From the IMG/VR virus record IMGVR_UViG_3300034122_000710: 64,000 bases of DNA; one strand, 5' to 3'. The position numbers and the translations under genes are program-made. This stretch comes from an uncultured virus (IMG/VR IMGVR_UViG_3300034122_000710). Taxonomy: Duplodnaviria; Heunggongvirae; Uroviricota; Caudoviricetes. The notes beneath the pieces were generated by a model, which made no database searches, was not told the DNA's origin, and saw only the letters and a program-made list of their open reading frames with translations. The first letter of the stretch is position 1. Every line of letters starts with the position of its first letter. Below are positions 2,951-40,695 of this stretch, piece after piece.

Positions 2951-3973
2951 TCAAGCAAACCTCGTTTGAGACGCAAGTACGGTGAACGTGGCCGAAGCTG
3001 TCTTGATTATTGTGTATGAGTACACATCAATGCCGTTTGCGTTACCTGAAATTGGCGTGTTGCCGTTCTGCCACTTAGGTGTTACCGAGACGCCGTCCAC
3101 TTGTATGACGTTGTTGTAGTATGCGGTGCTGCCTTGAGTGACAAGAAACGCGGCGGTTACAGACTCGCCAACAGCCAGTGCGGTATTTAGGCTTGTGCCG
3201 CTTGATGCTCGGAAGTTGACCGTCCAGTTTCCAGATGCGTTCGTCGTGTAGTAGACGACGGACTGTGTCGTCAAGTCGTAGTTAATCGTTCCTGTTGCGG
3301 CAGTGGCACTGACAGTAACGGCCTCAATAGCGTTGAGCAACTTGGTGCCAAGCGTACTGGTGCTGCCGGTAAAGGTCTGCTTAGCCGTAAAGTTTGTGGC
3401 TGTGCCAGGAGCGACATAGTCCGTACCCGCAGTGGCGGCGCTAAGCGCTGTGCCATTACCTTTGACAAGCCCGTTGACCGTGGTGGACAGCGTAAGCGTG
3501 GGAGTTGATCCGCCGCTGCTTGTACCGGCAAGCCCGTTGGACGATGCCACTGCGACCGAAGAAATCCCGATGCTTGAAGACAGCTTTACAAAATCGCTGC
3601 CGTTCCAAGCAACGATTGCATTCTCACTGACACCAACAGTGACGCCCGTGGTCGGGCCTGCGCCACGAATCTTGACCGTGTACGTGCCGGAGGTGTTGAT
3701 CACCACATAGGTTTTACTCGCCGCCGGGGCGGTAACGGTGATGTTGGCTACATGCCCCGACGCGATGATGATGGCGTACTGAGAAGACGTGGAGCCTAGC
3801 GATGTGCCCGTAGTCTTGGTCAGCGTGGTGTCGGCGTTGACTGTCAGCGCACCGGCCACCGAAGCGTCGAGGTACGACGTGATGTAGTTGTTGACGGTGT
3901 CACCCCAGGTGCCCGACAGTTCGCCCGTGACTGGCAGCGCCAGACCGAGCAGGGAGGTGTACGCGGTGGTCAT
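2951..3973 (-). CDS. Tail fibre protein
   Basis: T/S/G/A-rich beta-structure; N-terminal LALPVTGELSGTWG; C-terminal VTPKWQNG...DVYSYTIIKT domain typical of phage fibres. Confidence 0.75.
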   Translation of the reverse strand: MTTAYTSLLGLALPVTGELSGTWGDTVNNYITSYLDASVAGALTVNADTTLTKTTGTSLGSTSSQYAIIIASGHVANITVTAPAASKTYVVINTSGTYTVKIRGAGPTTGVTVGVSENAIVAWNGSDFVKLSSSIGISSVAVASSNGLAGTSSGGSTPTLTLSTTVNGLVKGNGTALSAATAGTDYVAPGTATNFTAKQTFTGSTSTLGTKLLNAIEAVTVSATAATGTINYDLTTQSVVYYTTNASGNWTVNFRASSGTSLNTALAVGESVTAAFLVTQGSTAYYNNVIQVDGVSVTPKWQNGNTPISGNANGIDVYSYTIIKTASATFTVLASQTRFA

Positions 3974-26712: not shown

Positions 26713-26732
26713 TTGCGACATTTGTCGCAATC
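26711..26732. repeat. Palindrome A, copy 3
   Basis: GATTGCGACA-TT-TGTCGCAATC. Confidence 0.9.
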
Positions 26733-26812
26733 GCCGCCGCCTTTGTCGCCCGGCCCAGGGTCGGGCGACATTTTGTAAGGTTCTTGGTAGCAACCACCCT
26801 TTTCACCCATGC

Positions 26813-27060
26813 TGGACACGCGTTGGGTAGCGTAAGTGCTTGATTCCACACGGTGTCCTCTCTCTACTACATCTATATCTATATCTATTTATGTATGTAG
26901 TAGTAGTAGTATTTTTGTGTGTGTGTGGGGCTTTCCTTTTTCCTCAGCCTCAGCCTTTTTCTTTTAGGTGCACTGGGCTTCAAAAAAACCATGCCATTTG
27001 ATTCAGTCCCGCAACTAGACATAGGAAGATCAAGAACTTATGCTACCCAAGACCTGTCCA
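26813..27060. other. Candidate replication origin / nucleoprotein site: 32-bp inverted repeat around AT-rich microsatellite core
   Basis: Arms 26813-26844 and 27029-27060 match at 27/32, each with an IHF-like ATCAA-N4-TTA; core has ATCTAT, TAG and GT repeats. Confidence 0.55.
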
Positions 27061-27124
27061 CCACCCCGTAAACGATGGACGCAACCGGCCAATCCTGGCC
27101 ACTTTTCAACCGAAGGAGCCCTTC

Positions 27125-27898
27125 ATGACTCGCCCCATTGCGTCTCGCGTGTGCCCTGAGTGTGCCGCCGAGCGACCCTTGAGAGACTTCCGCCGATGGC
27201 ACGGCGCGTACCGTGTGCTGCATGAGGTGTGCAACGTGTGCCGTCCTGAGCGCAAGCTCAGCGAGATGAGCGACCGCGAGCGCACCGATGTGATCAACCT
27301 GCGCCAGCTTTCTTACCGGGCCATCGAGCGCATCAACCGTTCGGTGGAGTACCGCAAGCGACTCAGTCGCAGCGACGCCATGCGCCGCAGCACCCACATG
27401 CGCAAGCTCGACCGGATCAGGAACTGGAACGCCGCCATTGGTGACGCCGTGCGCGAGGAACTAGAGACGGCCAACCGCAAGCGCGACTCGTACCGCAACA
27501 TGGCCTCGCTCTACAACGACCCCAACCCGAAGATACATCTAAGCAGGGCACAAACCGCCGCTCGCTTGCGGCACGGCGCCTGGGCTGCGGATACCTGGAT
27601 ACCGTTCTACACGCGGTACGCCGAGATACTGGAGCGAGTGCGCGACCAGATTAAATACCGTGCCAATATCGTTGGCAATTCAATTACTCCAACCGAGGAG
27701 GAGACGAAGCTCGAAACCTATATAACCCCGGAGGAAATACTCGAACTGAAAAACCTGTACACGCAGGGCACAGTTATTCCCGGCGTGCGGCATCGAATAC
27801 CCTGGGTAATCGAAGGCCGGTATGCCAAGACCAAGCAACGGAGAAAACCGATTGCGACAAATGTCGCAATCACAACCAACGAAGGAGAAAGCAAATGA
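27125..27898 (+). CDS. Hypothetical protein with N-terminal CxxC...CxxC zinc finger
   Basis: AAGGAG RBS; CPEC...CNVC; basic, helical. Confidence 0.75.
   Translation: MTRPIASRVCPECAAERPLRDFRRWHGAYRVLHEVCNVCRPERKLSEMSDRERTDVINLRQLSYRAIERINRSVEYRKRLSRSDAMRRSTHMRKLDRIRNWNAAIGDAVREELETANRKRDSYRNMASLYNDPNPKIHLSRAQTAARLRHGAWAADTWIPFYTRYAEILERVRDQIKYRANIVGNSITPTEEETKLETYITPEEILELKNLYTQGTVIPGVRHRIPWVIEGRYAKTKQRRKPIATNVAITTNEGESK
27850..27871. repeat. Palindrome A, copy 4
   Basis: GATTGCGACA-AA-TGTCGCAATC in 3' end of previous gene, ahead of the GP88-like RBS. Confidence 0.9.
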
Positions 27899-28536
27899 AG
27901 ATCAGCGTGACGAGCAAGCTCGACGGCATCAAGTCTTGGTCGCTTGAGGCGTTGGATACCTGCCCGGGCAGTAAAAACAAAGACGGCACGCTAGTGCCTG
28001 CGTGCAGCGGGTGCTACGCCACAACGGGGCGCTACATCATGCCCACAACCAAGGCACCACGCATCCACAACAAGGAGGACTGGCGCCGTCCCGCGTGGGT
28101 CACGGACATGGTGGCTGCGCTCAGTGGGGAAAAGTATTTCAGGTGGTTCGACAGCGGCGACATGTACGCCTTGGGTCTGGCCAAAAAGATTCTCGCTGTC
28201 ATGCAGCAGACGCCCGACACCAAGCACTGGCTACCCACCCGGATGGCGAAGTTCCCCAAGTTCCAGGCTGTCATCGACGAGATGCGGGCGCTGCCCAATG
28301 TGATGGTCAGGTTCAGCGCGGACAGCGTCGATGGTGGGTACACACCCGGGCTACACGGCAGCACGATAGCGCCGTCGGGGGTCAAGCCCAAACACACCTT
28401 CATCTGCGGCGCCTACGACCGCGAAGGCAAGTGCGACGGGTGCCGCGCCTGTTGGGACAAGTCCATCAACGTCATCACCTACCCCGCACACGGCAGGAAG
28501 ATGGCCAAGGTCATTCAGATTTCCGGGTCACGGTGA
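27895..28536 (+). CDS. GP88-like protein (divergent radical-SAM-like Fe-S protein)
   Basis: TSKL...SWSL.A..TCPG...C.GCYA, RWFDSGD, HWLPTR, C.....GKC.GCRACWD. Confidence 0.75.
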   Translation: MKISVTSKLDGIKSWSLEALDTCPGSKNKDGTLVPACSGCYATTGRYIMPTTKAPRIHNKEDWRRPAWVTDMVAALSGEKYFRWFDSGDMYALGLAKKILAVMQQTPDTKHWLPTRMAKFPKFQAVIDEMRALPNVMVRFSADSVDGGYTPGLHGSTIAPSGVKPKHTFICGAYDREGKCDGCRACWDKSINVITYPAHGRKMAKVIQISGSR

Positions 28537-28548
28537 CCCGGTCTTAAC

Positions 28549-28570
28549 GGGGGTGACGCCACCCCCTTTT
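28549..28570 (+). terminator. Intrinsic terminator
   Basis: GGGGGTG-ACGC-CACCCCC-TTTT. Confidence 0.7.
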
Positions 28571-28610
28571 CATCGGGGCTTCGGCCCCATTCAACTAGGA
28601 GAAAGCAACC

Positions 28611-29126
28611 ATGAACAAGATTCAAACAGCACAACGCAACGCCACCATCGCCCTGCACAAGCAGGCCCTGCGGATCGAGCTTGCTCGCCACCCCGAAGTC
28701 AAGAACATCCTCATGATGTTCCCCCCTGCCCTGCGCAAGGAGGTGCGCTTGCATCTCAGCGACTACGGCGACAGCGTCAACTTCACGCTCACCATGCGCG
28801 ACCTGGAGTCCTTCAAGGACAAGCAACTGACCAAGCTCCTGGCCAAGTTCGCAGGTGACGAGTGGCAAACGCAGACCTCTGACTACACCTACAGCGACGC
28901 ACCCAACCGGGACTTCAGCTTCAACCGCACCATCGCCTGGACGCCCAAGCCAAGCAAGCACACACGCTGGTTGGACACCAACGAAGAACCCATTCCCAAC
29001 ACCTTCCGCGTCTACATCACCCTCTACACCTACGTGAAGAGCGACTCGCCGACCTGCCGCATAGTGGTCGAGGGCTACGAGGAAGAAGTCGTGCGCAAGG
29101 AGATCAAGAAGATCGTCTGCGCCTAA
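28611..29126 (+). CDS. Hypothetical early protein (171 aa)
   Basis: AGGAGAAAGC RBS motif; C-terminal CRIVV.G...V...IKKIVC. Confidence 0.8.
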   Translation: MNKIQTAQRNATIALHKQALRIELARHPEVKNILMMFPPALRKEVRLHLSDYGDSVNFTLTMRDLESFKDKQLTKLLAKFAGDEWQTQTSDYTYSDAPNRDFSFNRTIAWTPKPSKHTRWLDTNEEPIPNTFRVYITLYTYVKSDSPTCRIVVEGYEEEVVRKEIKKIVCA

Positions 29127-29173
29127 CCAACCCGGGGCGGCATGTCGCCGCCCCACAACCCAAGGAGAAAGCC

Positions 29174-29371
29174 ATGAACGAAGTTCTTATGCAGACCTAC
29201 GACAACGAAGAGTTCCTCTACACCTACCAGATCGTCGGCAACGAGGGTGCGTACAAGGTGTGGAAGTCCACCGGCCCCATCACTGGGGGCTACATCAACA
29301 AGGGCGAGAGCTTCGACACCGCCATCGATGCGATGGAAGCGCTTGTCGAGTACATCAAGAAAGGAGAGTGA
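29174..29371 (+). CDS. Hypothetical early protein
   Basis: AGGAGAAAGC RBS motif. Confidence 0.75.
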   Translation: MNEVLMQTYDNEEFLYTYQIVGNEGAYKVWKSTGPITGGYINKGESFDTAIDAMEALVEYIKKGE

Positions 29372-29373
29372 CC

Positions 29374-29553
29374 ATGAAAGTGAAAGACCTGATCGAAGCA
29401 CTGCAAGAAGCTGGCGTCAACGGCGACGCCGAGGTATATGTGTGGGTGGCGGGCACGCGCTATCGCATCGCCGCCGACTACCCTGTTGACCCCTGGGATG
29501 GGGTTGGCCGACTCGTGGACATCAACACAGAAGGAGATGAGGTGCCAGCATGA
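29374..29553 (+). CDS. Small protein, MKVKDLIEAL family
   Basis: AAGGAG RBS; ATG at 29374. Confidence 0.7.
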   Translation: MKVKDLIEALQEAGVNGDAEVYVWVAGTRYRIAADYPVDPWDGVGRLVDINTEGDEVPA

Positions 29554-29765
29554 AAGACAACATCACCGCACTACCCGTGCGCCCCACCAAGGACGACGAC
29601 TACCTGCACGCTGCGCTGTGCATGATCGGTGAGGGGGGTGACTTCGCTAAGAGCATCGGCAAGGCGTATGTCCACGCCGACAGCCACAACAACGCACGCC
29701 TACGCGCTGCCTTCCCCGACCTGTTCACTCAGTTCTACATCAAGTACCAGGAACACAGGTCATGA
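29550..29765 (+). CDS. Small conserved phage protein
   Basis: GG.FA..IG.AY..AD..N...L..AFPDLF..F motif; ATGA overlap. Confidence 0.75.
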   Translation: MKDNITALPVRPTKDDDYLHAALCMIGEGGDFAKSIGKAYVHADSHNNARLRAAFPDLFTQFYIKYQEHRS

Positions 29766-29941
29766 AGGTCAAGGAACTGATCGAGTACCTACGCAGCGCG
29801 GCTGATCTCGATGCTGAGATGCTACCGGGTATGACCTACTGCCAAGTCATCGAGGAACTGAGCAAGCGCGACCCCGAGGACGAGGTCAGCGTACGCAACG
29901 GCGACAGGGTCTACACCATCGAGCGTGGGCCTTTGCATTGA
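29762..29941 (+). CDS. Small protein, MKVKELIEYL family with internal duplication (59 aa)
   Basis: ATGA overlap; below ORF-track cutoff; translated by hand. Confidence 0.65.
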   Translation: MKVKELIEYLRSAADLDAEMLPGMTYCQVIEELSKRDPEDEVSVRNGDRVYTIERGPLH

Positions 29942-29992
29942 AACCCCGTGGCCACTGCGGTTCAGTGGCACATCAACTAGGAGAAAGCAACC

Positions 29993-30400
29993 ATGATTGA
30001 CATCAACACCATCTTCAACAACGCCGTCACTGCCGCCGTCGAGGCGCACATCACGGCCATCCAGCAACAGCACGCCAACATCGTGGGAGAACTGGCTCAG
30101 CGCATCGCTGCACTAGAAACCCGACTGACCGAGGCTTCGCTCTTTCAGAAGGAGACGAACGTCACCGTAGACATGGACGCCCTGCGTGAACTGGTCACCC
30201 CGCTGGTGGGCAGCATGGTCGAGGCCAAGATCGAGGAAGCCATCCGCGCCCACGAGGAAGAGTACGACCATGACGAGTACGACAGGATGCTCCGCACAAT
30301 GGAAGACCATGACCTCGACGACTTCGTAAAGCAGCACGAGTTGGAGGATGCCGTCAAGGACGCAGTGCGCGACCTGACCTTCGAGGTCAGCGTCAGCTAA
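29993..30400 (+). CDS. Hypothetical acidic helical protein
   Basis: AGGAGAAAGC RBS motif; D/E-rich C-terminal half. Confidence 0.8.
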   Translation: MIDINTIFNNAVTAAVEAHITAIQQQHANIVGELAQRIAALETRLTEASLFQKETNVTVDMDALRELVTPLVGSMVEAKIEEAIRAHEEEYDHDEYDRMLRTMEDHDLDDFVKQHELEDAVKDAVRDLTFEVSVS

Positions 30401-30411
30401 GGAGAAAGCAA

Positions 30412-30627
30412 ATGACCAACGGAGTAACCAAAGACTTCATCGATTCGCTTACTGCGAAAGAACGCGCTGACCTGCTTGCAGGACTGACGAACTTGCATCT
30501 GAAGCGCACCGCAAGCGACGCGCTGATGACGGCGAGCCTGCTCACGCACTGCCTCAGAGCGTTGGGCATGCACGAGGAGGCGGAGTACGTGGCCAACCTG
30601 CAGCACCGCTTGTTCGACCTGACCTGA
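30412..30627 (+). CDS. Hypothetical protein
   Basis: AGGAGAAAGC RBS motif. Confidence 0.75.
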   Translation: MTNGVTKDFIDSLTAKERADLLAGLTNLHLKRTASDALMTASLLTHCLRALGMHEEAEYVANLQHRLFDLT

Positions 30628-30646
30628 AATTTTTTTCACCCGACCC

Positions 30647-30690
30647 TTCCCATATCTGTGGGAAGGGGTTACACTGTCCACATCTGGACA
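30647..30690 (+). promoter_or_regulatory. Putative sigma70 promoter with overlapping operator-like box
   Basis: TTCCCA-17-TACACT; perfect TGTCCA-CATC-TGGACA at 30675-30690. Confidence 0.6.
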
Positions 30691-30737
30691 CCCGTAGCCG
30701 CTGCGGATCAGCGGCAATCTCAACTAGGAGAAAGCAA

Positions 30738-31712
30738 ATGGCACATCAAATCGCAATCACCAACGGCGTCGCCCAGTACGCCTCCACGCAACGCGAGTGG
30801 CACGGCCTGGGGCAGTTGATGCTGCCCGGGCAGTCCATTGAGAAATGGCAAGAGGAAGCCGGTATGAACTATGAAGTGCAGCGTGGCTATGTGCGCTACG
30901 CCACCGAGCGTGGGCAGAACGCCGATCAGATGAAGGTAGTGAAGGACAAGGTGGTGCTGTTCCGCAGCGACACCAAGGACGCCCTGGGCGTGGTGTCGGA
31001 TTCGTATAAGGTTGTTCAGCCCCGTGAGGTGCTGGAGTTCTTCCGTGACTGGGCGCAAGCCGGTGGCATGACGATTGAGTCAGCCGGTGTTTTGTTTGGG
31101 GGTAAGCGTTATTTCGCCACCGCCAAGCTCGCCGAAGGCGTATGCGTCGATGGGTACTCCGACAAGGTTGTGCCCTACGCTCTCCTGTCTACCTCCGCCG
31201 ATGGCTCCCTGGCCACCGAGGCCCGGTGGACTACCGTCCGGGTTGTGTGCAACAACACCCTGAGCATGGCACGCGAGGGCAAGGCCGCAGTGCGGGTGAC
31301 GCACCGCAGCGAGTTCAAGCCTGAAGAAGTCCAATCAGTATTGGAGAACGCCAACGCTGAGTTCCATGCCTTCATGGAGATGAGCAGGCAACTGGCGGGT
31401 ATCCGCCTGTCCCGTCCCTTGGCAGAAGACCTCACGCTCCACCTGTTCAAGACTGGCACAACCAAGGATGCCGACAAGGTCAAGGAGTCGCGTGGTTATG
31501 TTCGAGTTCTCGAACTCTTCAACGGCGCGGCCAAGGGCGCCATGCTTGAGACAGCGCAGGAGACTGCGTGGGGTTGGCTCAACGCGGTGACCGAGTACGC
31601 TGACCACCACATCCGCGCTCACTCGGATGAGAACCGCACTGCCTCTGCTCTGTGGGGCCAGGGCGATACGCTCAAGAACCGTGCGGTGGAGTTGGCTCTG
31701 GCTGCGGCTTGA
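30738..31712 (+). CDS. DUF932 / phage-plasmid TIGR03299-like protein
   Basis: WHGLG, LGVVSDSYKVVQP.E...F, ESAG.L.GG, TTVRVVCNNTL, TAWGWLNAVTEYADH. Confidence 0.85.
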   Translation: MAHQIAITNGVAQYASTQREWHGLGQLMLPGQSIEKWQEEAGMNYEVQRGYVRYATERGQNADQMKVVKDKVVLFRSDTKDALGVVSDSYKVVQPREVLEFFRDWAQAGGMTIESAGVLFGGKRYFATAKLAEGVCVDGYSDKVVPYALLSTSADGSLATEARWTTVRVVCNNTLSMAREGKAAVRVTHRSEFKPEEVQSVLENANAEFHAFMEMSRQLAGIRLSRPLAEDLTLHLFKTGTTKDADKVKESRGYVRVLELFNGAAKGAMLETAQETAWGWLNAVTEYADHHIRAHSDENRTASALWGQGDTLKNRAVELALAAA

Positions 31713-31760
31713 GAAGGCTCACTATCAACAGCCACTATCAACATCTTCTCTTCCGGGGGC

Positions 31761-31795
31761 TTGCGCCCTCGGTTGAGTTTGTCTAAACTTGGACT
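31761..31795 (+). promoter_or_regulatory. Putative sigma70 promoter with overlapping operator-like box
   Basis: TTGCGC-17-TAAACT; TGTCTA-AACT-TGGACT at 31780-31795. Confidence 0.6.
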
Positions 31796-31818
31796 TCCCA
31801 CAACCAAAGGAGAAAGCA

Positions 31819-32205
31819 ATGACCGAAACCATCATTAAAACCAAGACCAACAAGGCCGCGCTAATCCGCGAGCTTCTCAAAGACAAAACCAAGAGCCGCG
31901 CGCAGATCGCCGAGGAGGTGGGCTGCAAGGTGCAGTACGTCTTCAGCGTGCAGAACCATGACCGAGTGAAAGCGAAGAAGCTCAAGGCCAAGAAAGCGTA
32001 CGAGCGCAAGCTGGAGCGCCTCAAGGGCGCATCGAAGCGCAAGTACGTCAAGAGTGGCAAGTACGCGAAGAAGGTTCCCGCGCCCACCACGCCGGTGGTG
32101 GAGCCGATTGTGAAGACCCAGTACATCGAGATCGAGGTACCGCAGCCGCACTACAACCTCACATGGCGCCAGCGTTTCACTGCGCTGTTTTTCGGGAGGG
32201 TCTGA
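31819..32205 (+). CDS. Basic HTH DNA-binding protein
   Basis: NKAALIRELL...SRAQIAEEVGCKVQYVFSV; AGGAGAAAGC RBS. Confidence 0.7.
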   Translation: MTETIIKTKTNKAALIRELLKDKTKSRAQIAEEVGCKVQYVFSVQNHDRVKAKKLKAKKAYERKLERLKGASKRKYVKSGKYAKKVPAPTTPVVEPIVKTQYIEIEVPQPHYNLTWRQRFTALFFGRV

Positions 32206-32207
32206 GC

Positions 32208-32399
32208 ATGAAGTTCTACGAGGTCGAACTCAAACGCGAGTCCTACATCACCATCGTTGTCGCCGCCTACTCCAAGGAGGAAGCGGAAGCGAAGGCATGG
32301 CAAGAGATCGAGCATAACCGTGCCGACATCAACGACGCCAACTGGGACATCGAATCCATTGAAGAAGCGGAAAGAACAGAAGAGGAGAGAGCCGAATGA
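32208..32399 (+). CDS. Small acidic protein (DpnD/PcfM-like pattern)
   Basis: YEVE.......V.A.S.EEAE.KA pattern. Confidence 0.65.
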   Translation: MKFYEVELKRESYITIVVAAYSKEEAEAKAWQEIEHNRADINDANWDIESIEEAERTEEERAE

Positions 32400-32557
32400 A
32401 GACACGAGCATTGAAGATGGTGCGCCAGTTGTTCGCGGTGGACTACGTACCTATCCACACGCAGCGCCACAACCAACGGCAGTGGGTCAAGAGCGTTCGA
32501 CAACTGGGTGACCGATGGCTACTCGCAAAGCCCCTCGACGTGCAAAAGAAGCACTAG
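32396..32557 (+). CDS. Small conserved phage protein (53 aa)
   Basis: GAGGAG RBS; RHNQRQWVKSVRQLGDRWLLA; translated by hand. Confidence 0.65.
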   Translation: MKTRALKMVRQLFAVDYVPIHTQRHNQRQWVKSVRQLGDRWLLAKPLDVQKKH

Positions 32558-32667
32558 ACCCGCCGCCCAAGGTCTGGCCCTTCCCAACGTGGAAGGGTCA
32601 GCCGTACAAACCAAGGAAACAACCAAAGCCGAAGGCATGGGAAGCCATGCCCGAGGCGCTGATGTAG
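32515..32667 (+). CDS. Small Pro-rich protein (WPFP motif, 50 aa)
   Basis: Translated by hand; WPFP...PEALM; start uncertain. Confidence 0.45.
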   Translation: MATRKAPRRAKEALDPPPKVWPFPTWKGQPYKPRKQPKPKAWEAMPEALM

Positions 32668-32676
32668 GAGAAACAA

Positions 32677-32799
32677 ATGCAACGCTATGAAGACGATGGC
32701 CTGGACGATCTGGGCTGGCTCATCCTCATGCTGATGGCACTGGGCTTTCTGTTCTTTGCCGTGGTGACGTTCATCGCGTGGATGGGGTGGCTGACATGA
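32677..32799 (+). CDS. Small single-TM membrane protein (40 aa)
   Basis: AGGAG RBS; acidic N-terminus plus hydrophobic helix. Confidence 0.6.
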   Translation: MQRYEDDGLDDLGWLILMLMALGFLFFAVVTFIAWMGWLT

Positions 32800-33017
32800 A
32801 CCTACGAGAAGCAGCGCAGCAGGCGCTTGAGGCAATGGCCTGTATGCGCGACATGGTTGCTCATCCCGACAACCTTCAGTTCATTGACAACGCAATCACC
32901 GCCCTCCGAGCCGCGCTTGCGGAGCCTCAAGAAAAGTACACACGGGGCACCCCGCTGCTAGATGCTTTCCTGTTGGCACCTAAACCGGGGCAACTCAAAG
33001 ACAGGGGAAAGGAATGA
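32796..33017 (+). CDS. Hypothetical protein (LREAAQQALEA...AITALRAALAEP family)
   Basis: ATGA overlap; motif common in phage accessory genes. Confidence 0.7.
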   Translation: MNLREAAQQALEAMACMRDMVAHPDNLQFIDNAITALRAALAEPQEKYTRGTPLLDAFLLAPKPGQLKDRGKE

Positions 33018-33220
33018 GCGGCGATCACAACGCAATACTGGCACAGATAGATGCACAACCCAAGCCAAGACAGAAGGTATCTGAGAGATCAGTGCGGGTC
33101 ACCATTGGCATGATGAGAACCCTCGCACGCAACATCCCCGTAAGTCCGTTTCACCTGCACGCCGCAGACCAGATGGAGCGGATGTTGGAAGAACTAATTA
33201 ACTTGAGGAAACAGAAATGA
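33014..33220 (+). CDS. Hypothetical protein
   Basis: ATGA overlaps at both ends. Confidence 0.65.
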   Translation: MSGDHNAILAQIDAQPKPRQKVSERSVRVTIGMMRTLARNIPVSPFHLHAADQMERMLEELINLRKQK

Positions 33221-33447
33221 CCAAGACTATTAAAGACAATGATGACGGCGCACGCGTGTTCGCCGATGGCCGCAACCTCGCTGTTGGCAAAGGGCGCATC
33301 CTGTGGGGCACCGCCACGCAGACGAGCCGCAACATGGTGTACGAGGAAGGCTGGGTTCTGCCCGGTGGTCAACGCACAAAAAACTACGATGTCGCGCAAG
33401 CCTACGCCAGTTGGATTGACGAGCAGTGCAGGGCGTGGGGTCGTTGA
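33217..33447 (+). CDS. Hypothetical protein (EGWVLPGG motif)
   Basis: ATGA overlap; GAGG RBS. Confidence 0.65.
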   Translation: MTKTIKDNDDGARVFADGRNLAVGKGRILWGTATQTSRNMVYEEGWVLPGGQRTKNYDVAQAYASWIDEQCRAWGR

Positions 33448-33869
33448 TGCCGTACACGCCTGTACCACCAAACCAGAAAGGCAGGCGGCAGATCAAGATC
33501 AACGCGCTCACGCAGGCCCAACTGATCAAGCTCCTCCTCGAAGGCACATACACGTGTGCCGAACTGGCCGAGATGACGGGCCTTCACTACGTGACCGTAC
33601 TCCAATACACACGGGAACTCCACCGTGCGGGCGCTGCCCACATCAGCGGGTGGGAGAAAGACCGGCGAGGGTGTGATGTGGCTAAGATTTACAAACTTGG
33701 TGTAGGCAACGACAAGCGGCGTCAGCGCAAGTCTGACGCAGAAAAGCAAGCCGCCTACCGAACCAAGAAGAAGCAAATCAAAGTCATGGAGATGTTGACA
33801 TCATGCAGTGCCCAGAGTGTGGAGCGAAAGCCCACGCCCTTGAAGTTAGAGCCACAACTGGTGGCCTGA
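33447..33869 (+). CDS. Winged-HTH DNA-binding protein
   Basis: TCAELAEMTGLHYVTV.QY.RELH..G..HI.GW; TGATG coupling. Confidence 0.7.
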   Translation: MPYTPVPPNQKGRRQIKINALTQAQLIKLLLEGTYTCAELAEMTGLHYVTVLQYTRELHRAGAAHISGWEKDRRGCDVAKIYKLGVGNDKRRQRKSDAEKQAAYRTKKKQIKVMEMLTSCSAQSVERKPTPLKLEPQLVA

Positions 33870-34144
33870 AGCGAAGGAGATACGAGTGTCAGACGTGCGC
33901 GTTTCGATTTACGACAGTGGGGACACCGCAGGACCTGCGGCTGGACATGCACAACAACCCGCACCGCCACGAGCAGGCAGTGAGGACATCAAGGCAGGAG
34001 AAAGCCTACTACGCGCAAATGATCGCCAGGAAGGAGGCACCCATTACAAGCAGTTCAGATACGAAACCTGGGACGTTATCGTTGACTGGAATCTTGGCTA
34101 CTTGGATGGCAACGCCGTCAAGTACCTCAGCCGATGGCGACTGA
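33803..34144 (+). CDS. NrdR-like zinc-ribbon protein
   Basis: MQCPECG...RRRYEC..C.FRFTT; C-terminal extent doubtful. Confidence 0.6.
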   Translation: MQCPECGAKAHALEVRATTGGLKRRRYECQTCAFRFTTVGTPQDLRLDMHNNPHRHEQAVRTSRQEKAYYAQMIARKEAPITSSSDTKPGTLSLTGILATWMATPSSTSADGD

Positions 34145-34224
34145 AGGGTGGCATACAAGACCTGAAGAAGGCGCGCCACTACATCGACAAACTCATCGAA
34201 ACAGAAGAAGCAAAGAATTCATAG
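33886..34224 (+). CDS. DUF3310 (SaV-like) protein; start uncertain
   Basis: ANDRQ.GG.HYK...GNAVKYLSRW..KGG.QDLKKARHYIDKLIE; domain begins ~34012. Confidence 0.75.
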   Translation: MSDVRVSIYDSGDTAGPAAGHAQQPAPPRAGSEDIKAGESLLRANDRQEGGTHYKQFRYETWDVIVDWNLGYLDGNAVKYLSRWRLKGGIQDLKKARHYIDKLIETEEAKNS

Positions 34225-34239
34225 GCGGCGCGTTGGTTT

Positions 34240-34367
34240 GGTAACGGTGGCAAGCCTTGCAGATGCGACCCACTATTGCCGCTTGCGCAGTGCCGCTTGG
34301 AAAGTACTTGCTGCGCAAGCATCCGTTTACCTAGACCGAGGGGGCTAGGAATCTGCATCACCCCCTC
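34240..34367 (+). ncRNA. Predicted highly structured intergenic RNA (junction plus pseudoknots)
   Basis: Six helices found by eye, each using a distinct segment (see findings); strand inferred from operon direction. Confidence 0.55.
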
Positions 34368-34408
34368 ACCTTCATGTTCAACCTCACCCACAACTACAGG
34401 AGAAAGCA

Positions 34409-34894
34409 ATGGAAATAAGCACCACAATCGAAGCGATGCGTCGCCGCTGGGGCGAGACGATACGCCACGGAGGCGGATACTGCCCTGTGTGCACCCGATG
34501 GGGCAGCATCTACAAGCGGGGCATCAACCGCACGATGGCGCGCTCCCTGATCTGGCTCAACATGCAGCAGGGTGACGAGGACGGGTGGGTGGACGTGCCT
34601 GCCACCGGCCCCAAGGATGTGCTGCGCACCAACCAGTTGTCCACCCTCAAGTGGTGGGGGCTGATCCAGCGCAAGCCCAACGACGATCCGAAGAAGCGGT
34701 GCTCGGGCATCTGGCGCGTGACGGACAAGGGCAAAGACTTCATCAGCAGCGCCGTCCGCGTGCCCAAGTACGTCTACACCTACAACGACGAGGTTGCGTT
34801 CTACGGTGATGAAACCGTGGCGCTGAGCGACTGCTTCCTCGACAACTTCGACTACCGAGAAGTGATGGGGATTCCTCATGGCAGCGACGCCTGA
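34409..34894 (+). CDS. Zn-knuckle / winged-helix-like hypothetical protein
   Basis: CPVC...YKR.I; L..LKWWGLI...G.WRVT.KG..F; AGGAGAAAGC RBS. Confidence 0.75.
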   Translation: MEISTTIEAMRRRWGETIRHGGGYCPVCTRWGSIYKRGINRTMARSLIWLNMQQGDEDGWVDVPATGPKDVLRTNQLSTLKWWGLIQRKPNDDPKKRCSGIWRVTDKGKDFISSAVRVPKYVYTYNDEVAFYGDETVALSDCFLDNFDYREVMGIPHGSDA

Positions 34895-35189
34895 AGTCAA
34901 GGTCAAGAAGCAGTGCGTGGCACTGCTCAACGCACATGGGGTTTACTACTTCTTCCCCGTGGCCTCGGGCTACGGTAGGGTGGGCATCCCCGACATCATC
35001 GCCTGCTGCGACGGCCACTTCCTGGCCATCGAGTGCAAGGCAGGCAAGAACAAACCAACCGCTCTGCAGGAAGCCGAGATGCTCAAGATACGCACGGCAG
35101 GCGGCACGACCCTCGTGATCAACGAGGACAACATCAACGAACTACAGGGGTGGTTAGATGCTAGGAGTCCACTACATGAACAACGATGA
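34878..35189 (+). CDS. VRR-NUC domain nuclease (putative Holliday-junction resolvase)
   Basis: TPE.KVK...G.PDII.C..G.FLAIECKAG...TALQ. Confidence 0.85.
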   Translation: MAATPEVKVKKQCVALLNAHGVYYFFPVASGYGRVGIPDIIACCDGHFLAIECKAGKNKPTALQEAEMLKIRTAGGTTLVINEDNINELQGWLDARSPLHEQR

Positions 35190-35448
35190 ATACGGACGCT
35201 ACATGGAGGCGCAGGTCGCCAACATGGAGCCGGAGAAGAAGGAGGCGCTGATCCACGCCATCAAGACGCTGTTCCGCGCCTTCTCGGAAGACAACACGCA
35301 AGGCGTGCTCATACTGCTGGAGAAGGGCGAGTGCATGACCACGATGGGGCTGAACGCCACATACGACGAGTCGGTGCGCATAGTCAACACGGCGCTCAAC
35401 GTCTTCATCGAGGACGCGATAACGACTGAGACAGAAACAAAACACTAA
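35176..35448 (+). CDS. Hypothetical protein
   Basis: AGGAG RBS before ATG at 35176. Confidence 0.65.
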   Translation: MNNDEYGRYMEAQVANMEPEKKEALIHAIKTLFRAFSEDNTQGVLILLEKGECMTTMGLNATYDESVRIVNTALNVFIEDAITTETETKH

Positions 35449-35456
35449 GGAGAAGC

Positions 35457-37433
35457 ATGAGCCTACCTTTCACGCGAGTGATCGCGCTTGACTTTGAGAC
35501 TGCCTGGGACAGGAAGGAATACACCCTGTCCAAGATGACCACCGAGGAGTACGTCCGCGACCCGCGCTTCAAGGCATGGGGCCTGTGCTGGAAAGAAGTG
35601 GGGGAAGACGCATACCCCATGTGGGTTCGAGGCGAAGCCATCTCCGAGTGGGCTTCGGAAATCAATTGGGAAGAGACAGCAGTCCTGGCACACAACGCCC
35701 AGTTCGACGTGACGATTTTGAGTTGGGTGTATGGGATACAACCAGCCTTCATCTTCGACACGCTCAGCATGGCCCGCGCGCTGCGCGGCATCGAGGTGGG
35801 CAACTCCCTCGCACAACTGGCGCAAGACTTCGGCCTGCCGCCCAAGGGTCAAGCGGTTCACAGCACAGACGGGATGCTAGACGAGATCAGCGAGGAGGTT
35901 GAGCGCGAGTTGGCTGACTACTGCGCACACGACACCGTCCTGTGCGAAGCGATCTTTGATCGCTTGATGCCAGGGTTCCCGCCCAAGGAACTGCGCCTCA
36001 TCGACATCACGCTCAAGATGTACACAAGGCCGCTGCTGGAACTCGACAAGGGGATGCTGCAAGCGGCCATCGTAGAAGAAAGGGAAGCCCGTGAAGGGCT
36101 GTTAAAGAAGCTCGGTGTAGATGAGGCTGCGCTTGCGTCGAACGATAAATTTGCCGAAACGCTGCGCGCTCTTGGCATCGAGCCGCCAACGAAGATCAGC
36201 AAGACCACGGGACTTGAAGCGTACGCCTTGGCCAAGAATGATGCGCTGTTCCAGGCGCTGCTCAACAGCGACAACGAAGACGTGATGCTGCTGTGCCAAG
36301 CACGGCTCAAGGTCAAGTCCACATCCGAGCGCACGCGTGCACAACGCTTCCTCGACATCGCGCACCGTGGCCGGTTGCCGGTCCCGCTGAGTTACTTCGG
36401 CGCAGGCACTGGCCGGTGGACGGCGAGCAAGGGCAGCGCCATCAACATGCAGAACCTCAAGCGTGGCAGCTTCCTGCGCAACGCCATCATGGCGCCCGAG
36501 GGCCACCTGCTGGTGGCCGGTGACCTCTCTCAGATCGAGCCGCGTGTGCTCGGCGTGCTGTCGGACAACACGGCGCTGTTGGATATCTTTCGCTCGGGCA
36601 ACGACGCCTACGCCCAGTTCGGCTCCATCATGTTCGGCATCGTCGGCCTGACCAAGGACACGCACCCCGTGGAGCGGCAAGCCGCCAAGAGCGCGCTGAT
36701 CGGGGCGGGCTACCAGTTGGGCTGGGCGTCGTTCGCTGCGCAGCTTCTGGTGGGGTTCCTGGGCGCCAAGCCGCTGCGCTACACCAAGGACGAGGCCCGG
36801 GTGCTGGGCGTCACGGGCGAGGATGTCAGGCGCTTCCTTGAGTGGGACGAGAACCTCAAGAAGATGGAGACCATCCCGCACACCTGCAGCGACGTCGAAC
36901 TGGCCATCCACTGCCTCGCAGCCAAGGCCATTATCGACAAGTACCGAGCCGCCTCGCAGCCCGTGGTGGAGTTCTGGAACTTGTGCCAGGAACTGATCGA
37001 GTACAGCCTGTACCGGGGCAAGGAATACAAGCACAAGTGCATCACGTTCCGCAAGGAGCAAATCATCTTGCCAAGTGGCATGGCGATGCGGTATCCTGAT
37101 CTCCGCCAGGACAAAGACGAGGGTGGTCGACCCCAGTGGTCGTACGCTGATGGCAAGAAGCGCATCAAGCTGTACGCCGGGAAGATCACCAACAACATTG
37201 TTCAGGGCACGGCGCGCTGCGTCATGACAGACGGGATGCTAAGGGTTGCGAAGAAGTACCCTTTGGTAGGCACGGTGCATGACGAATTGATCGCCGTGAT
37301 ACCGGAAGGAGACGAAGATTACGCTAAGACTTGGGTCTTGGCGCAGATGACTATGGAGCCGCCGTATTTACCGGGCATCCCGCTTGATGCGGGAGTCGGT
37401 GTTCACAAGCGGTATGGAATGACCAAAGACTAA
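35457..37433 (+). CDS. DNA polymerase family A with 3'-5' exonuclease
   Basis: DFET, AHNAQFD, YC.HD exonuclease motifs; TGRW, DLSQIEPR (A), R..AKS...G.GY (B), TVHDE (C). Confidence 0.95.
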   Translation: MSLPFTRVIALDFETAWDRKEYTLSKMTTEEYVRDPRFKAWGLCWKEVGEDAYPMWVRGEAISEWASEINWEETAVLAHNAQFDVTILSWVYGIQPAFIFDTLSMARALRGIEVGNSLAQLAQDFGLPPKGQAVHSTDGMLDEISEEVERELADYCAHDTVLCEAIFDRLMPGFPPKELRLIDITLKMYTRPLLELDKGMLQAAIVEEREAREGLLKKLGVDEAALASNDKFAETLRALGIEPPTKISKTTGLEAYALAKNDALFQALLNSDNEDVMLLCQARLKVKSTSERTRAQRFLDIAHRGRLPVPLSYFGAGTGRWTASKGSAINMQNLKRGSFLRNAIMAPEGHLLVAGDLSQIEPRVLGVLSDNTALLDIFRSGNDAYAQFGSIMFGIVGLTKDTHPVERQAAKSALIGAGYQLGWASFAAQLLVGFLGAKPLRYTKDEARVLGVTGEDVRRFLEWDENLKKMETIPHTCSDVELAIHCLAAKAIIDKYRAASQPVVEFWNLCQELIEYSLYRGKEYKHKCITFRKEQIILPSGMAMRYPDLRQDKDEGGRPQWSYADGKKRIKLYAGKITNNIVQGTARCVMTDGMLRVAKKYPLVGTVHDELIAVIPEGDEDYAKTWVLAQMTMEPPYLPGIPLDAGVGVHKRYGMTKD

Positions 37434-37447
37434 ACAAAGGAGAGAGC

Positions 37448-37753
37448 ATGCCCAACATCCCCGTTCGCATCCGCGTAGGCAAGCAGATGTATTCCGTTGA
37501 CGTGGTCGAGTCCATGCGCCGCAAGGCGACGATGGGTCGCACTTACTACGACCTGGGTCGCATCGAAATCGGTGTCAACAGCAACGTCACTGGGCGCAAG
37601 TTCACCGACGCCGAGATCGACGACACCTTCTGGCACGAGGTCACGCACGCCATCCTCTACGACATGGGGCACCGCCTGCACGACGACGAGCACTTCGTCA
37701 CCGAGTTCTCAGGGCGCCTTGCCAAGGCCATCAAGTCAGCGAAGTTCAAATGA
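37448..37753 (+). CDS. Small HExxH metallopeptidase-like protein
   Basis: DTFWHEVTHAIL...DE.FV. Confidence 0.7.
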   Translation: MPNIPVRIRVGKQMYSVDVVESMRRKATMGRTYYDLGRIEIGVNSNVTGRKFTDAEIDDTFWHEVTHAILYDMGHRLHDDEHFVTEFSGRLAKAIKSAKFK

Positions 37754-38421
37754 CAGACACCAACATCACGTGGAGCCACAGCGGCCTGAAGGATTTCGAG
37801 GGTTGCGCTCGGCGCTACCACGAGGTCAAGGTTCTAAAGAACTACCCGTTCCAAGAGACGACGCACACCATCTACGGGAAGGATGTGCACAAGGCCATCG
37901 AGGACTACGGCAAGGACGGCACGCCCATCCCCGAGAAGTACGCGCAGTTCAAGCCGGTGGTGGATGCAGTGCTCAACAAGCCCGGGCGCAAGTTGTTCGA
38001 GCACGAGATGGGTGTGACCCGGGACCTGCAGCCTTGTGGCTTTAACGACCCCAATCGCTGGGTGCGCGGCATCGCCGACCTGCTGATCATTGACGACGAC
38101 AACCTCACCGCCAAGGTGGTGGACTGGAAGACGGGCAACAACAAGTACCCGGATAAAGACCAGTTGGTCTTGATGTCTCTCATGGTGTTCGCCCACTTCC
38201 CCCACATCAGGCAGGTCAAGTCGGCGCTGTTCTTTCTCGTCAAGGAAACGATGACCACCCACGCCATGCTGCGCGGTGAGGCTGAGGAGGCGTGGTGGCG
38301 TTACCGTGAGCGTGTGGCCAAGCTCGAAGCAGCGCACGCCACCGAGGTGTGGAACCCATCACAGTCCCCGCTGTGCGGATGGTGCCCTGTGGCCACCTGC
38401 ACGTTCAACCCCAAGCACTAG
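37750..38421 (+). CDS. PD-(D/E)XK (Cas4/RecB-like) exonuclease
   Basis: WSHS.L..F..C, RGIADL, VVDWKTG, QL, LCGWCP...C. Confidence 0.85.
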   Translation: MTDTNITWSHSGLKDFEGCARRYHEVKVLKNYPFQETTHTIYGKDVHKAIEDYGKDGTPIPEKYAQFKPVVDAVLNKPGRKLFEHEMGVTRDLQPCGFNDPNRWVRGIADLLIIDDDNLTAKVVDWKTGNNKYPDKDQLVLMSLMVFAHFPHIRQVKSALFFLVKETMTTHAMLRGEAEEAWWRYRERVAKLEAAHATEVWNPSQSPLCGWCPVATCTFNPKH

Positions 38422-38430
38422 GAGCCAAGC

Positions 38431-38661
38431 ATGGCCACGCGTGACTACAAGAAGGAATACGCCGAGTACCACGGCAAGCCCGAACAGATCGCCAACCGAG
38501 CCGAGCGCGTCAAGGCACGGCGCGTGATGGAGAAGACGGGTGCAGCCAAGAAGGGTGACGGCAAGGACGTAGATCACATCAGACCGCTCAGCAAGGGCGG
38601 CACCTCCGCGAAGACCAACCTGCGCATGCGCAGCGTTAAGGCCAATCGCGGAGACAAGTAA
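38431..38661 (+). CDS. Small HNH-like protein
   Basis: RDYKKEY...GDGKDVDH.RPLSKGG....NL......NR. Confidence 0.75.
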   Translation: MATRDYKKEYAEYHGKPEQIANRAERVKARRVMEKTGAAKKGDGKDVDHIRPLSKGGTSAKTNLRMRSVKANRGDK

Positions 38662-38675
38662 CAACAGGAGAAAGC

Positions 38676-40244
38676 ATGGAAGTCGTTGAGAACCGGTTGC
38701 TCGTCTTCAAGACGCGCAACCCGGATAAGTATTCCCTCATCCCCAAGAGCAAGGCGCTGCCCCGTGAAGGCGGCGGCTACGACGTAGCCGTGTACTGGGG
38801 CCTGGACGAAGCGCGTGTGCTGCGCAACCTGGGGGTGAAGAACGTACCGTCTCCCATCTATGGGCGCTACGAGTGGCCCGGGCGCTACACGCCGATGTCT
38901 CACCAGAAGGAGACTGCCTCCTTCCTCACGCTGCACCGCCGTGCGTTCGTCTTCAACGATCCCGGTACGGGCAAGACGCTATCTGCCCTGTGGGCAGCAG
39001 ACTACCTGATGAAGCGTGGCGACGTTAGGAGGGTTTTGATTTTGTGTCCGCTGTCGATCATGCACAGCGCCTGGATGCAGGACTTGGGTAACAGCGTCAT
39101 CCATCGCAGCGCGGTGGTGGCGCACCATGCCCAAGCAGCCAAAAGAATAGAACTCATTCAAGAGAACTACGAGTTCGTCATCATCAACTACGAGGGCCTG
39201 AGCCTGATTGCCAACGAGGTCAAGGCCGATGGTAGGTTTGACTTGGTGATTGTGGACGAAGCCAACGCCTACAAGAATCCACAGACCAAGCGGTGGAAGG
39301 CGCTTAACTCCATCCTCAAGCCTGACACCTACCTGTGGATGATGACCGGCACGCCTGCTTCCCAGAGTCCTGTGGACGCCTACGGTCTGGCCAAGCTGGT
39401 CAACCCCAACGGGGTGCCAAAGTTCTACACCGCATGGCGCGATGCCGTGATGAACAAGATCACGATGTTCAAGTGGGCGCCCAAGCTCGACGCTGCCGAC
39501 AAGGTGTACGAGGCGCTGCAGCCCGCCATCCGCTACAGCAAAGCGCAGTGCCTGGACCTGCCGCCCGTGGTGACGATGACCCGCGAGGTGCCACTCACGC
39601 CGCAGCAAGCCAAGTACTACAACCTGCTCAAGACCCAGATGCTGGTGATGGCTGCAGGCGAGACGATCACGGCAGTCAACGCTGCCGCTGCGTTAAATAA
39701 ACTCCTGCAAATCTCAGCAGGCGTGGCCTACACCGACAACAAGGAGGTGGTTGAGTTCGACGCTACCCCGCGTCTGAACGTCCTGATGGAAGCACTCGAA
39801 CAGACGGACAGGAAGGTGATCATCTTCGCCCTGTTCCGCTCCGCCATCGACGCCATCAGCGAGTACCTCAACAAGAACGGAATCGCCAACGAGCAGATTC
39901 ACGGCGGCGTGACCGCCACCAAGCGCGGCGACATCATCAAGCGTTTCCAGACGCAGCCCAACCCGAGGGTGCTCGTCATGCAGCCTGCGGCTACAGCGCA
40001 CGGCATCACGCTGACCGCTGCCGACACGGTGATCTTTTACGGCCCGCTGATGAGCGTGGAGCAGTACACCCAGTGCATCGCACGGGCTGACCGCAAGGGG
40101 CAGAACGCCGACAAGGTGACCGTCATCCACATCGAGGGCTCGCCCGTGGAGAAGAAGATGTTCAAGGCGCTCACCGCCAAGGTGGACGACAACGCACTGC
40201 TCGTTGACCTGTTCAACAGCGAAATTAAAGAAAGGGGGTTGTAA
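38676..40244 (+). CDS. SNF2-family (SF2) helicase
   Basis: DPGTGKT, VIVDEAN, MTGTP, HGITLTAA, Q...RADRKGQ. Confidence 0.9.
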   Translation: MEVVENRLLVFKTRNPDKYSLIPKSKALPREGGGYDVAVYWGLDEARVLRNLGVKNVPSPIYGRYEWPGRYTPMSHQKETASFLTLHRRAFVFNDPGTGKTLSALWAADYLMKRGDVRRVLILCPLSIMHSAWMQDLGNSVIHRSAVVAHHAQAAKRIELIQENYEFVIINYEGLSLIANEVKADGRFDLVIVDEANAYKNPQTKRWKALNSILKPDTYLWMMTGTPASQSPVDAYGLAKLVNPNGVPKFYTAWRDAVMNKITMFKWAPKLDAADKVYEALQPAIRYSKAQCLDLPPVVTMTREVPLTPQQAKYYNLLKTQMLVMAAGETITAVNAAAALNKLLQISAGVAYTDNKEVVEFDATPRLNVLMEALEQTDRKVIIFALFRSAIDAISEYLNKNGIANEQIHGGVTATKRGDIIKRFQTQPNPRVLVMQPAATAHGITLTAADTVIFYGPLMSVEQYTQCIARADRKGQNADKVTVIHIEGSPVEKKMFKALTAKVDDNALLVDLFNSEIKERGL

Positions 40245-40274
40245 TCGACTCTGGACACTGTATACTCTTAGACA
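40239..40274 (+). promoter_or_regulatory. Putative sigma70 promoter with overlapping operator-like box
   Basis: TTGTAA-16-TATACT; TGTATA-CTCT-TAGACA at 40259-40274 plus extra TGGACA half-site at 40252. Confidence 0.6.
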
Positions 40275-40293
40275 CAAAGATAAGGAGAAAGCA

Positions 40294-40683
40294 ATGACTG
40301 AAGACACCATCCCGATGGACAAGCTCGTGCGCATGTACACCAAGATGCGCACGGCCATCCAAGACCTCGACAAGCAGATCGAAAACATCAAGGAGCAGCA
40401 GCAAGAGGTGAAGAACGCCATGAAGGATCAGATGATGGCGCTCGGTACCAAGTCTGTTCGCACCGACTTCGGCACGATCACGCTCAAGGAGAAGACCCGG
40501 TACTACACCCAGGACTGGGACAGCTTCAAGAAGTTTGTGATCGAGCACGACGCTGTCGATCTGCTTGAGAAGCGCATCGCGCAAACCAACATGCAGACGT
40601 TCTTGGAAGAGAACCCCAGCCTGCATCCCCCTGGACTCAGCAATACTGCCGAGTTCGATATCGCTGTTACCAAGCCTCGTTAA
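40294..40683 (+). CDS. Conserved replication-module protein (coiled coil plus SVRT..GT motif)
   Basis: AGGAGAAAGC RBS; DW..F..F......DLLEKRI.Q. Confidence 0.75.
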   Translation: MTEDTIPMDKLVRMYTKMRTAIQDLDKQIENIKEQQQEVKNAMKDQMMALGTKSVRTDFGTITLKEKTRYYTQDWDSFKKFVIEHDAVDLLEKRIAQTNMQTFLEENPSLHPPGLSNTAEFDIAVTKPR

Positions 40684-40695
40684 GGAGAAAGCACC

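Follow-up and report, generated by a model that had tools for sequence, protein, structure and literature searches.

Between two genes of the window, as we call the whole 64-kb stretch of tailed-phage DNA analyzed here, lies an RNA of about 145 nt (34223-34367, plus strand) that is real and conserved. It is built from six covarying helices, three of which form pseudoknots (A, C and F), and 110 distinct copies, falling into 44 clusters at 80% identity, were found in one clade of uncultured aquatic phages. We put at roughly 55% the probability that it is a stop-codon-gated RNA which captures translation initiation regions in cis and probably acts in trans as well, a reading derived from comparison of its sequence with that of its homologs and their genomes.

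Structure of the RNA

A sequence-only reading of the window had described a compact element at 34240-34367 in an intergenic gap of about 185 nt (34225-34408, 184 nt when measured), and every string that it quoted was found where it had been placed. The RNA is larger than that element: helix A, the first pseudoknot, had been missed. From the 5′ end, the order of the strands is A, P2, C, P2′, P3, A′, P3′, P4, F, P4′, C′, F′ (Table 1). Four of the six helices proposed from the sequence are conserved among 77 aligned homologs: the perfect 10-bp hairpin, our P3, is paired in 94.7% of cells, with compensatory changes in 9/9 pairs; CCTAG/CTAGG, our P4, in 89.3% (4/5); the pairing of its loop in an H-type pseudoknot, GAGGGGG/CCCCCTC or F, in 93.8% (5/7); and the long-range TGCAGAT/ATCTGCA, helix C, in 98.9% (5/7). 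The other two, AACGG/CCGTT and GGCAA/TTGCC, paired in 41.9 and 49.7% of cells, stay at about the level of shuffled sequences (jointly 46.0% vs 43.5%, with 23/500 shuffles as high and 66/500 for covariation), so the three-way junction that they had been thought to form is unsupported; P2 is the helix conserved in that part of the RNA.

With corrected registers, 86.8% of 3088 cells in the 77 homologs are paired, compared to 64.4% after shuffling, and compensatory changes occur in 38/43 pairs, with slid controls 41-50% paired; the covariation check suggested earlier thus found compensatory changes, and more than the 10-bp hairpin is conserved. Because this alignment was fitted to nested helices and its sequences are related to each other, an alignment-free test was added, in which each strand was matched to the partner from its own cluster or from another of the 44 clusters; it gave z values of 16 (A), 17 (P2), 26 (P3), 12 (P4), 14 (C) and 11 (F). 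Over 34235-34375, the plus strand gives a better fold than its shuffles do (z -3.24, 2/200 as good; minus strand, z -1.70), and the excess of G-U over A-C in P3, 35 vs 8, argues that the plus strand acts as RNA.

P2 and P3 stack into a single column, with pseudoknot A fastening one end and the C/P4/F domain the other. Since P2 and P3 abut, the single-stranded J1 and J3/4 linker flank their junction and should be neighbors in space. The invariant or nearly invariant nucleotides (A, U of helix C, GGC, an unpaired A and CC) gather at one tertiary junction, and a search of 4.2 Mb of loci with a descriptor that has short fixed anchors yielded 92 distinct matches, all of them within the known set. 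Helix A is missing in one subfamily, and P2 and the segment before F′ accommodate additional hairpins. The copies with such hairpins, within P2 or between C′ and F′, are L586, L600 and L602 and, separately, L979; L836, L839, L841 and L844 lack pseudoknot A and carry a hairpin in which CAU is paired to an AUG that shares bases with the stop codon; L288 and L321 have tandem duplications in the spacer 3′ of the RNA.

Neither J1 and the linker (z -0.4) nor the linker and F (z -0.1) covary in the 44 clusters. A conserved P1 between J1 and the linker, seen as 3-4-bp pairs in some lineages only, and a linker-F switch were rejected on these grounds, as was a pairing of CAU with the loop AUG, which varies to AUC or UUG while CAU stays. 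The 23-codon ORF noticed earlier inside the element, a candidate leader peptide, was also dismissed: it is not conserved, its lengths range from 1 to 100 codons and are mostly 1, its counterpart in about half of the 44 representatives is an AUG followed immediately by a stop, and in 6 the AUG is missing.

TABLE 1. Coordinates of the RNA and of neighboring features in the window.
Feature	Position	Strand	Remarks
Upstream gene	33886..34224	+	112 aa; PHROG 236 'nucleotide kinase' family
Upstream gene TAG stop	34222-34224	+	Overlaps RNA 5′ end
Helix A 5′ strand, pseudoknot 1	34223..34229	+	Pairs with 34292-34298 in P3 loop; 6/6 pairs compensatory
J1 single strand	34230..34239	+	CGU at 34231-33; CAU in most homologs; proposed anti-AUG/anti-spacer arm
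P2 hairpin	34240..34280	+	34240-44/34276-80 (71.9% paired), 34246-50/34270-74 (77.3%)
P2 loop	34254-57, 34258-64, 34265-68	+	Conserved GCCU, helix C 5′ strand, GYGA, respectively
P3 hairpin	34281..34320	+	Stacks on P2, zero linker; A′ (34292-98) in loop
J3/4 linker, single strand	34321..34329	+	Resembles an anti-Shine-Dalgarno, weakly so in the window (AUCCG); most homologs have CUCCU or CCUUUC
3′ domain	34330..34367	+	P4, H-type pseudoknot F, invariant A34350, helix C 3′ strand
P4	34330-34/34345-49	+	Part of 3′ domain
Pseudoknot F, H-type	34338-44/34361-67	+	Part of 3′ domain
Helix C 3′ strand	34351-57	+	Docks onto P2 loop
Next gene's initiation region	34399..34411	+	GGAG 34399, ATG 34409; nearest possible cis target
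First downstream gene	34409-34894	+	PHROG 2693, unknown
VRR-NUC endonuclease	34878-35189	+	
90-aa ORF		+	Between VRR-NUC and polymerase
Family A DNA polymerase	35457-37433	+	
Downstream genes as a set	34409..37433	+	
GGAGAAAGC start-site repeat	27884..40692	+	12 copies; candidate trans targets

Distribution Among Phages

An HMM search found the element in 37/80 IMG/VR loci chosen by the upstream protein and in 5/5 chosen by the downstream protein; pattern scans, which yield sets biased toward the conserved core, found it in 74/120, 56/95 and 107/121 further loci. Sets without this bias come from covariance-model searches over whole records: 2 new cases among 43 upstream-protein records without a nearby element, 16/50 records picked by the polymerase, and 14/32 picked by the helicase, with hits judged by eye. 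The copy number is one per record in 43/43. Two tandem cases occur elsewhere, in G322 (7769-8073) and G323 (2957-3259), where the copies (L981, L983) have diverged and the first is without most of the 5′ part. Three complete relatives (G102, G133 and G294) contain no match, and the element is therefore optional within the clade; a strictly co-occurring protein was sought in 12 phages with the RNA and 6 without it, some incomplete, and none was found.

A BLASTN search of 50,697 cultured phage records gave chance hits only, and the model matched neither the nearest cultured phages, Rollin, RHph_TM27A and KPP25, nor the nearest record, G001, a 51% fragment. In one betaproteobacterial order 0/151 genomes matched, a weak test in which 19 candidates were scored per genome; a loose-pattern scan of genome contigs, uninformative on bacteria, had 0/120 true among the matches listed, and another pattern had 0/121 true. 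A 12-bit match in L937 was discarded as antisense to a gene. Three RNA libraries had no cover over the RNA, and one library, probably of DNA, contained a 184-nt contig at a depth of 3.4.

A Closely Placed Stop Codon Upstream and a Varied Context Downstream

Helix A begins inside the upstream stop codon. Scored by script, a stop lies 25-44 nt before the core anchor in 38/44 clusters, and L231 also fits when its frame is corrected. Helix A starts at a median of 3 nt before the end of the stop, a position that greedy helix extension may put off by a few bases, compared to a median of 21 nt after the stop for the start of 44 terminator hairpins from the same kind of genomes (p 2e-13). Exceptions to the adjacency, or limits on the spacing, are seen in L058, L293, L504, L559, L978 and L222-like copies; in L504, helix A shifts together with the stop. 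Genome compaction could account for part of this adjacency.

The proteins encoded upstream belong to about 19 BLAST groups. Downstream, a VRR-NUC gene is most often found; otherwise, the RNA is followed by other genes, by a terminator (L593, L574, L588), by a promoter-like site before a start that lacks a Shine-Dalgarno (SD) sequence (L227, L304, L246, L504), or by no same-strand gene (L216, L545). The location upstream of nuclease and polymerase genes, given in the sequence-only reading, is correct for the window, but the varying downstream context does not make it a binding constraint. A start codon follows most copies at 9-45 nt, and none lies within 45 nt in 8/44 clusters. In L227, L246, L304, L504 and L593, the VRR-NUC gene after the RNA appears to be served by its own promoter-like site and to have a very short leader or none; an anti-SD RNA would not act on mRNAs of this kind.

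The upstream stop is TAA in 17 clusters, TGA in 14 and TAG in 12, and only 4-6 of 43 are open across the RNA in any one frame, with 4/32 open into the next gene. Recoding by readthrough, frameshifting or a SECIS-type element was rejected because all three stops are used and the frames are closed. The next gene occupies the three frames 11/10/11 times, with neither frame nor distance fixed.

Two Single Strands Resemble the Complement of a Start Site

At a fixed place in J1, 31/44 clusters have CAU, 3 have CGU, which is still able to pair with AUG, and 10 have neither. Among the first 33 clusters CAU was present in 21, with 2.5 expected and a maximum of 9 in 5000 shuffles; it recurred in 8/11 clusters found later by the covariance model in protein-picked contigs and, as judged by eye, in each of the five single-copy types that were new in a third set. 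CAU lies at a median of 10 nt after the stop and is kept in 7/8 of the clusters that have no start codon within 45 nt. The J1 of L831 has CAC instead, which would read GUG, and its best target in its own genome starts with GTG.

The linker contains CUCC, CCUC, UCCU, CCUU or CUUUC in 33/44 clusters, and CCCC in only 2. Its longest match to 16S rRNA 3′ tails is 4.95 nt, compared to 3.84 +/- 0.13 nt in shuffles; one of the two tails compared was taken from a Limnobacter genome. The linker is a conserved anti-SD motif of the RsaE/RNAIII type, unpaired as judged by comparative evidence. The spacing of the two arms implies an SD-AUG distance of 4-9 nt in 24/32 cases, with a mode of 6, and their joint reverse complement resembles a start site, e.g., UAAGGAGGU, a spacer and AUG in L028. 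As sequence, J1 and the linker together read as the complement of a Shine-Dalgarno, a spacer and an AUG.

The copy in the window is atypical in that it has CGU in J1 and a weak anti-SD linker. Its J1 pairs over 8/9 nt with the phage's own AAAGCAAUG start repeat (-7.0 kcal/mol), a pairing available at three gene starts, the next gene's among them.

Fit of the Guides to Start Sites in Their Own Genomes

Guide-by-genome matrices compared own and foreign same-strand starts, with the cis gene left out and kinship ignored; gene starts were called by a script helped by SD scores. The J1 strand fits its own genome (p 0.0008 for 19 genomes, the cis gene excluded; letter-shuffle control, p 0.0025; P3-loop control, p 0.66), a result that stands at p 5e-5 in 30 genomes and p 0.018 in the 11 genomes added later. 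With the whole guide, early-strand starts of the same phage gave a better fit than foreign ones (z 4.3, 34 genomes), the excess being 1.05 kcal vs 0.14-0.39 for three letter-shuffled sets, and 32/50 top targets lie on the strand of the RNA, with 23.5 expected. At least five perfect pairs upstream of the AUG are formed at 19/639 own and 58/18531 foreign start sites. The L730 guide matches one own start site over about 21 nt, that of L835 matches four own starts and that of L005 three; further cases are L606 and L058.

This own-genome signal is carried mostly by a subset of lineages, largely those with GGU-type guides. Without such guides the J1 signal has p 0.11 (22 genomes) and 0.34 (12 genomes), and when related groups are collapsed, p 0.006-0.11; own-start matches with non-GGU guides are found in L835, L836/L841, L730 and L581. 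The linker signal is partly compositional: it is seen on internal ATGs too (p 0.004) and is not significant in the new genomes (p 0.12). The tests in cis gave a mixed picture, with p 0.009 for J1, 0.93 for the linker and 0.36 for the duplex energy. The window's own copy has no excess in the matrices (0.0; -0.7), and the opposite-strand, late genes give no own-genome signal (p 0.42 and 0.19, small n). A single orthologous target across phages was sought and does not exist.

Proposed Function and Alternatives

In the reading that we favor, the RNA would be a module of about 145 nt at the 3′ end of an early gene, in which J1, with CAU and its flanks, pairs with the AUG of an mRNA and the linker with its Shine-Dalgarno, giving a four-way junction; loading of the 30S subunit on the captured SD-AUG region would be blocked. 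A ribosome terminating at the upstream stop would melt helix A and cover CAU, so capture would take place only when the upstream gene is not translated or the RNA has been cut free. Acting in cis, the RNA would couple the next gene to translation of the upstream one; in trans, its effect would be a bulk damping of the phage's early mRNAs and possibly of those of the host. Conservation of CAU, also where no cis start follows, the 16S-like linker, the natural arm spacing, the lack of an internal partner, the own-start matches, the stop adjacency and the subfamily with a CAU/AUG hairpin speak for capture, whereas the dependence on GGU guides, the mixed cis tests, the 10/44 clusters without CAU or CGU and the neutral window copy speak against it. 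The invariant C/P4/F core lies outside the capture model and may leave room for catalysis or protein recruitment. More tentatively, and with odds well below even, the RNA might mimic both the 16S anti-SD and the initiator anticodon CAU, switched by the ribosome, with the core cutting captured mRNAs or recruiting a nuclease to them; by an equally tentative analogy, it would then do with RNA alone, and with a split guide that can be programmed, what RegA and RegB do in T4.

The sequence-only reading had offered a ribozyme, a riboswitch or an sRNA; the evidence points to an RNA that pairs with mRNAs, and a classical riboswitch is argued against by the combination of a varied downstream context with a 5′ end tied to a stop codon. 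No consistent 5′-UTR position with an expression platform was found in the homologs. A riboswitch or a protein-bound translational operator of the downstream replication genes, which the complexity of the fold and the location of most copies 9-45 nt before a start, often that of VRR-NUC, would suit, is very improbable, given that the downstream gene and any expression platform vary, that 8/44 clusters have no start in reach, that the linker and F show no covarying alternative pairing and that no protein strictly co-occurs. A guided or self-cleaving ribozyme is rather doubtful. Its active site would be the C/P4/F core, and J1 and the linker would position the substrate, which might, with the same reservation, be either the start region of an mRNA or, at the stop codon, the 5′ end of the RNA itself. 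Such a ribozyme would explain why invariant nucleotides concentrate at one tertiary junction and why the element is optional and placed between varied genes, but an Rfam ribozyme match is absent, the helix order is unlike the HDV-like fold, and one subfamily does without the 5′ end, helix A.

The same stop adjacency could serve translation positively: the fold might hold the next AUG by the stop and pass the terminating ribosome on, replacing the stop-start overlap of relatives without the RNA. Three such relatives do join the same two genes by overlap, J1 covaries in cis (p 0.009), and weak SDs are more frequent in genes directly after the RNA (31% of 32 vs 11% of 1078, p 1e-5, with a background selected with SD help). 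We nonetheless consider such re-initiation unlikely, as copies followed by a terminator, a promoter or no gene retain CAU, the pairing would conceal a start rather than present it, and the weak-SD comparison, when limited to VRR-NUC genes, shows no difference (15% among 20 vs 19% among 27, with some rows assigned to the wrong class). It is likewise quite improbable that the RNA is a 3′-end stabilizer, a nuclease block or a decoy, whose CAU and CUCC would be tertiary contacts or protein marks that resemble an anti-start by coincidence. The position at the end of early transcripts, directly before a terminator in some phages, and the restriction of own-genome matching to a subset of lineages would fit, yet the natural SD-AUG spacing, the change from CAU to CGU, the own-start matches of 7-21 nt and the CAU/AUG hairpin subfamily would be left unexplained.

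Relation to Known RNAs

A search of the window with Rfam 15 returned 0 matches at the gathering threshold, in line with the earlier failure to assign the element to a known RNA class. On the region itself, E<=10 gave one 17.6-bit chance match, elsewhere than on the RNA, and on 12 diverse homolog loci one 22-bit match fell on the terminator region downstream of the copy in L574. Strong covariation, no Rfam match and one copy per genome in most phages uphold the suggestion of a possibly new structured RNA.

Some parallels are of principle only. Box H/ACA RNAs, like the phage RNA, hold a split guide across a junction, and the dicistrovirus intergenic IRES also has three pseudoknots between two ORFs, but the phage RNA does not keep to one frame or one distance relative to the next gene. 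In the rpmI-rplT pseudoknot and the MS2 coat-replicase pairing, an upstream ribosome melts a pairing that hides a downstream start; these couplings are gene-specific pairings within coding RNA, whereas the phage RNA is a portable module that follows genes for about 19 groups of proteins and retains its arms where there is no cis target. To our knowledge, few small RNAs have three pseudoknots, and those that do mostly perform sophisticated biochemistry.

In RsaE and RNAIII, an unpaired C-rich pyrimidine motif pairs with the Shine-Dalgarno of several mRNAs and blocks initiation, and the phage RNA has a comparable unpaired anti-SD motif; according to the passages cited, RsaE and RNAIII are independently transcribed hairpin sRNAs of Firmicutes (PMC2790875). 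The phage RNA differs in its three pseudoknots, its split guide with an anti-AUG arm and its start on a stop codon; neither a promoter of its own nor a fixed terminator was found. The T4 proteins RegA, acting at the AUG region, and RegB, acting at GGAG, inactivate many early mRNAs, on the account cited, the same job as inferred for the phage RNA (PMC3014915). They are proteins and have no sequence or structural relation to it. HDV-like and theta ribozymes are described, in the sections cited, as a nested double pseudoknot of P1-P4 with a catalytic C in J4/2, adjoining tRNAs in gut phages; the phage RNA is likewise a small multi-pseudoknot RNA whose 5′ end abuts an upstream feature, but its helix order differs, it has three pseudoknots, and the window has no tRNA (PMC10879173). 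The only three-pseudoknot motif named in the part cited of PMC5737381 is the 581-nt ROOL RNA.

Thus, the RNA would work like SD-targeting sRNAs and T4 RegA/RegB, yet it has the defining features of no family tested. No description of the motif was found in the open-access literature, subscription papers being outside the scope, and the RNA is apparently undescribed so far. The DUF3310- and PolA-linked rows compared in Fremin 2023 (39-141 nt, from marine, gut and plant samples) do not fit it; an earlier unannotated listing may exist elsewhere among the 10,006 candidates of that study (PMC10690425). If SD-AUG capture is true, the RNA would add a new way for phages to control translation, would naturally sense when ribosomes terminate and could be put to use as a programmable translation switch; if that function is wrong, the motif is still a solid new candidate ribozyme or structure. 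More than 100 natural variants and a readable hypothesis make it testable with a few oligonucleotides.

The Phage and Its Gene Neighborhood

An early/replication gene block occupies the plus strand of the window at about 25-45 kb, with minus-strand genes on either side, and encodes VRR-NUC, a family A polymerase, an exonuclease, an HNH protein and a SNF2-type helicase. The nearest cultured polymerases, from the Rhizobium RHph_TM27 group and Pseudomonas phages Rollin and KPP25, are about 30% identical to that of the window. ARAGORN found 0 tRNA or tmRNA genes in the window. The PHROG 236 gene upstream of the RNA is one that we take to be DUF3310-like; a 113-aa CxxC ORF (33803-34144, plus strand) with weak matches to PHROG 10675 and 603 overlaps it in a different frame, an overlap found again in homologs.

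Eleven of the 12 GGAGAAAGC copies lie at gene starts (27884, 28598, 29164, 29980, 30401, 30727, 31809, 34399, 38667, 40284 and 40684), and the one at 34399 is the initiation region of the gene that follows the RNA. Related phages carry start repeats of their own, e.g., GGAGTCTCACCATG in L606, L058 and L220; shuffling of gene cassettes could be an alternative source of such repeats. Larger gaps between called genes of the window are found at 32400-32795 and 26713-27235, the latter with a strong terminator-like hairpin at its start (26744-26770) and a promoter-like site at 27016.
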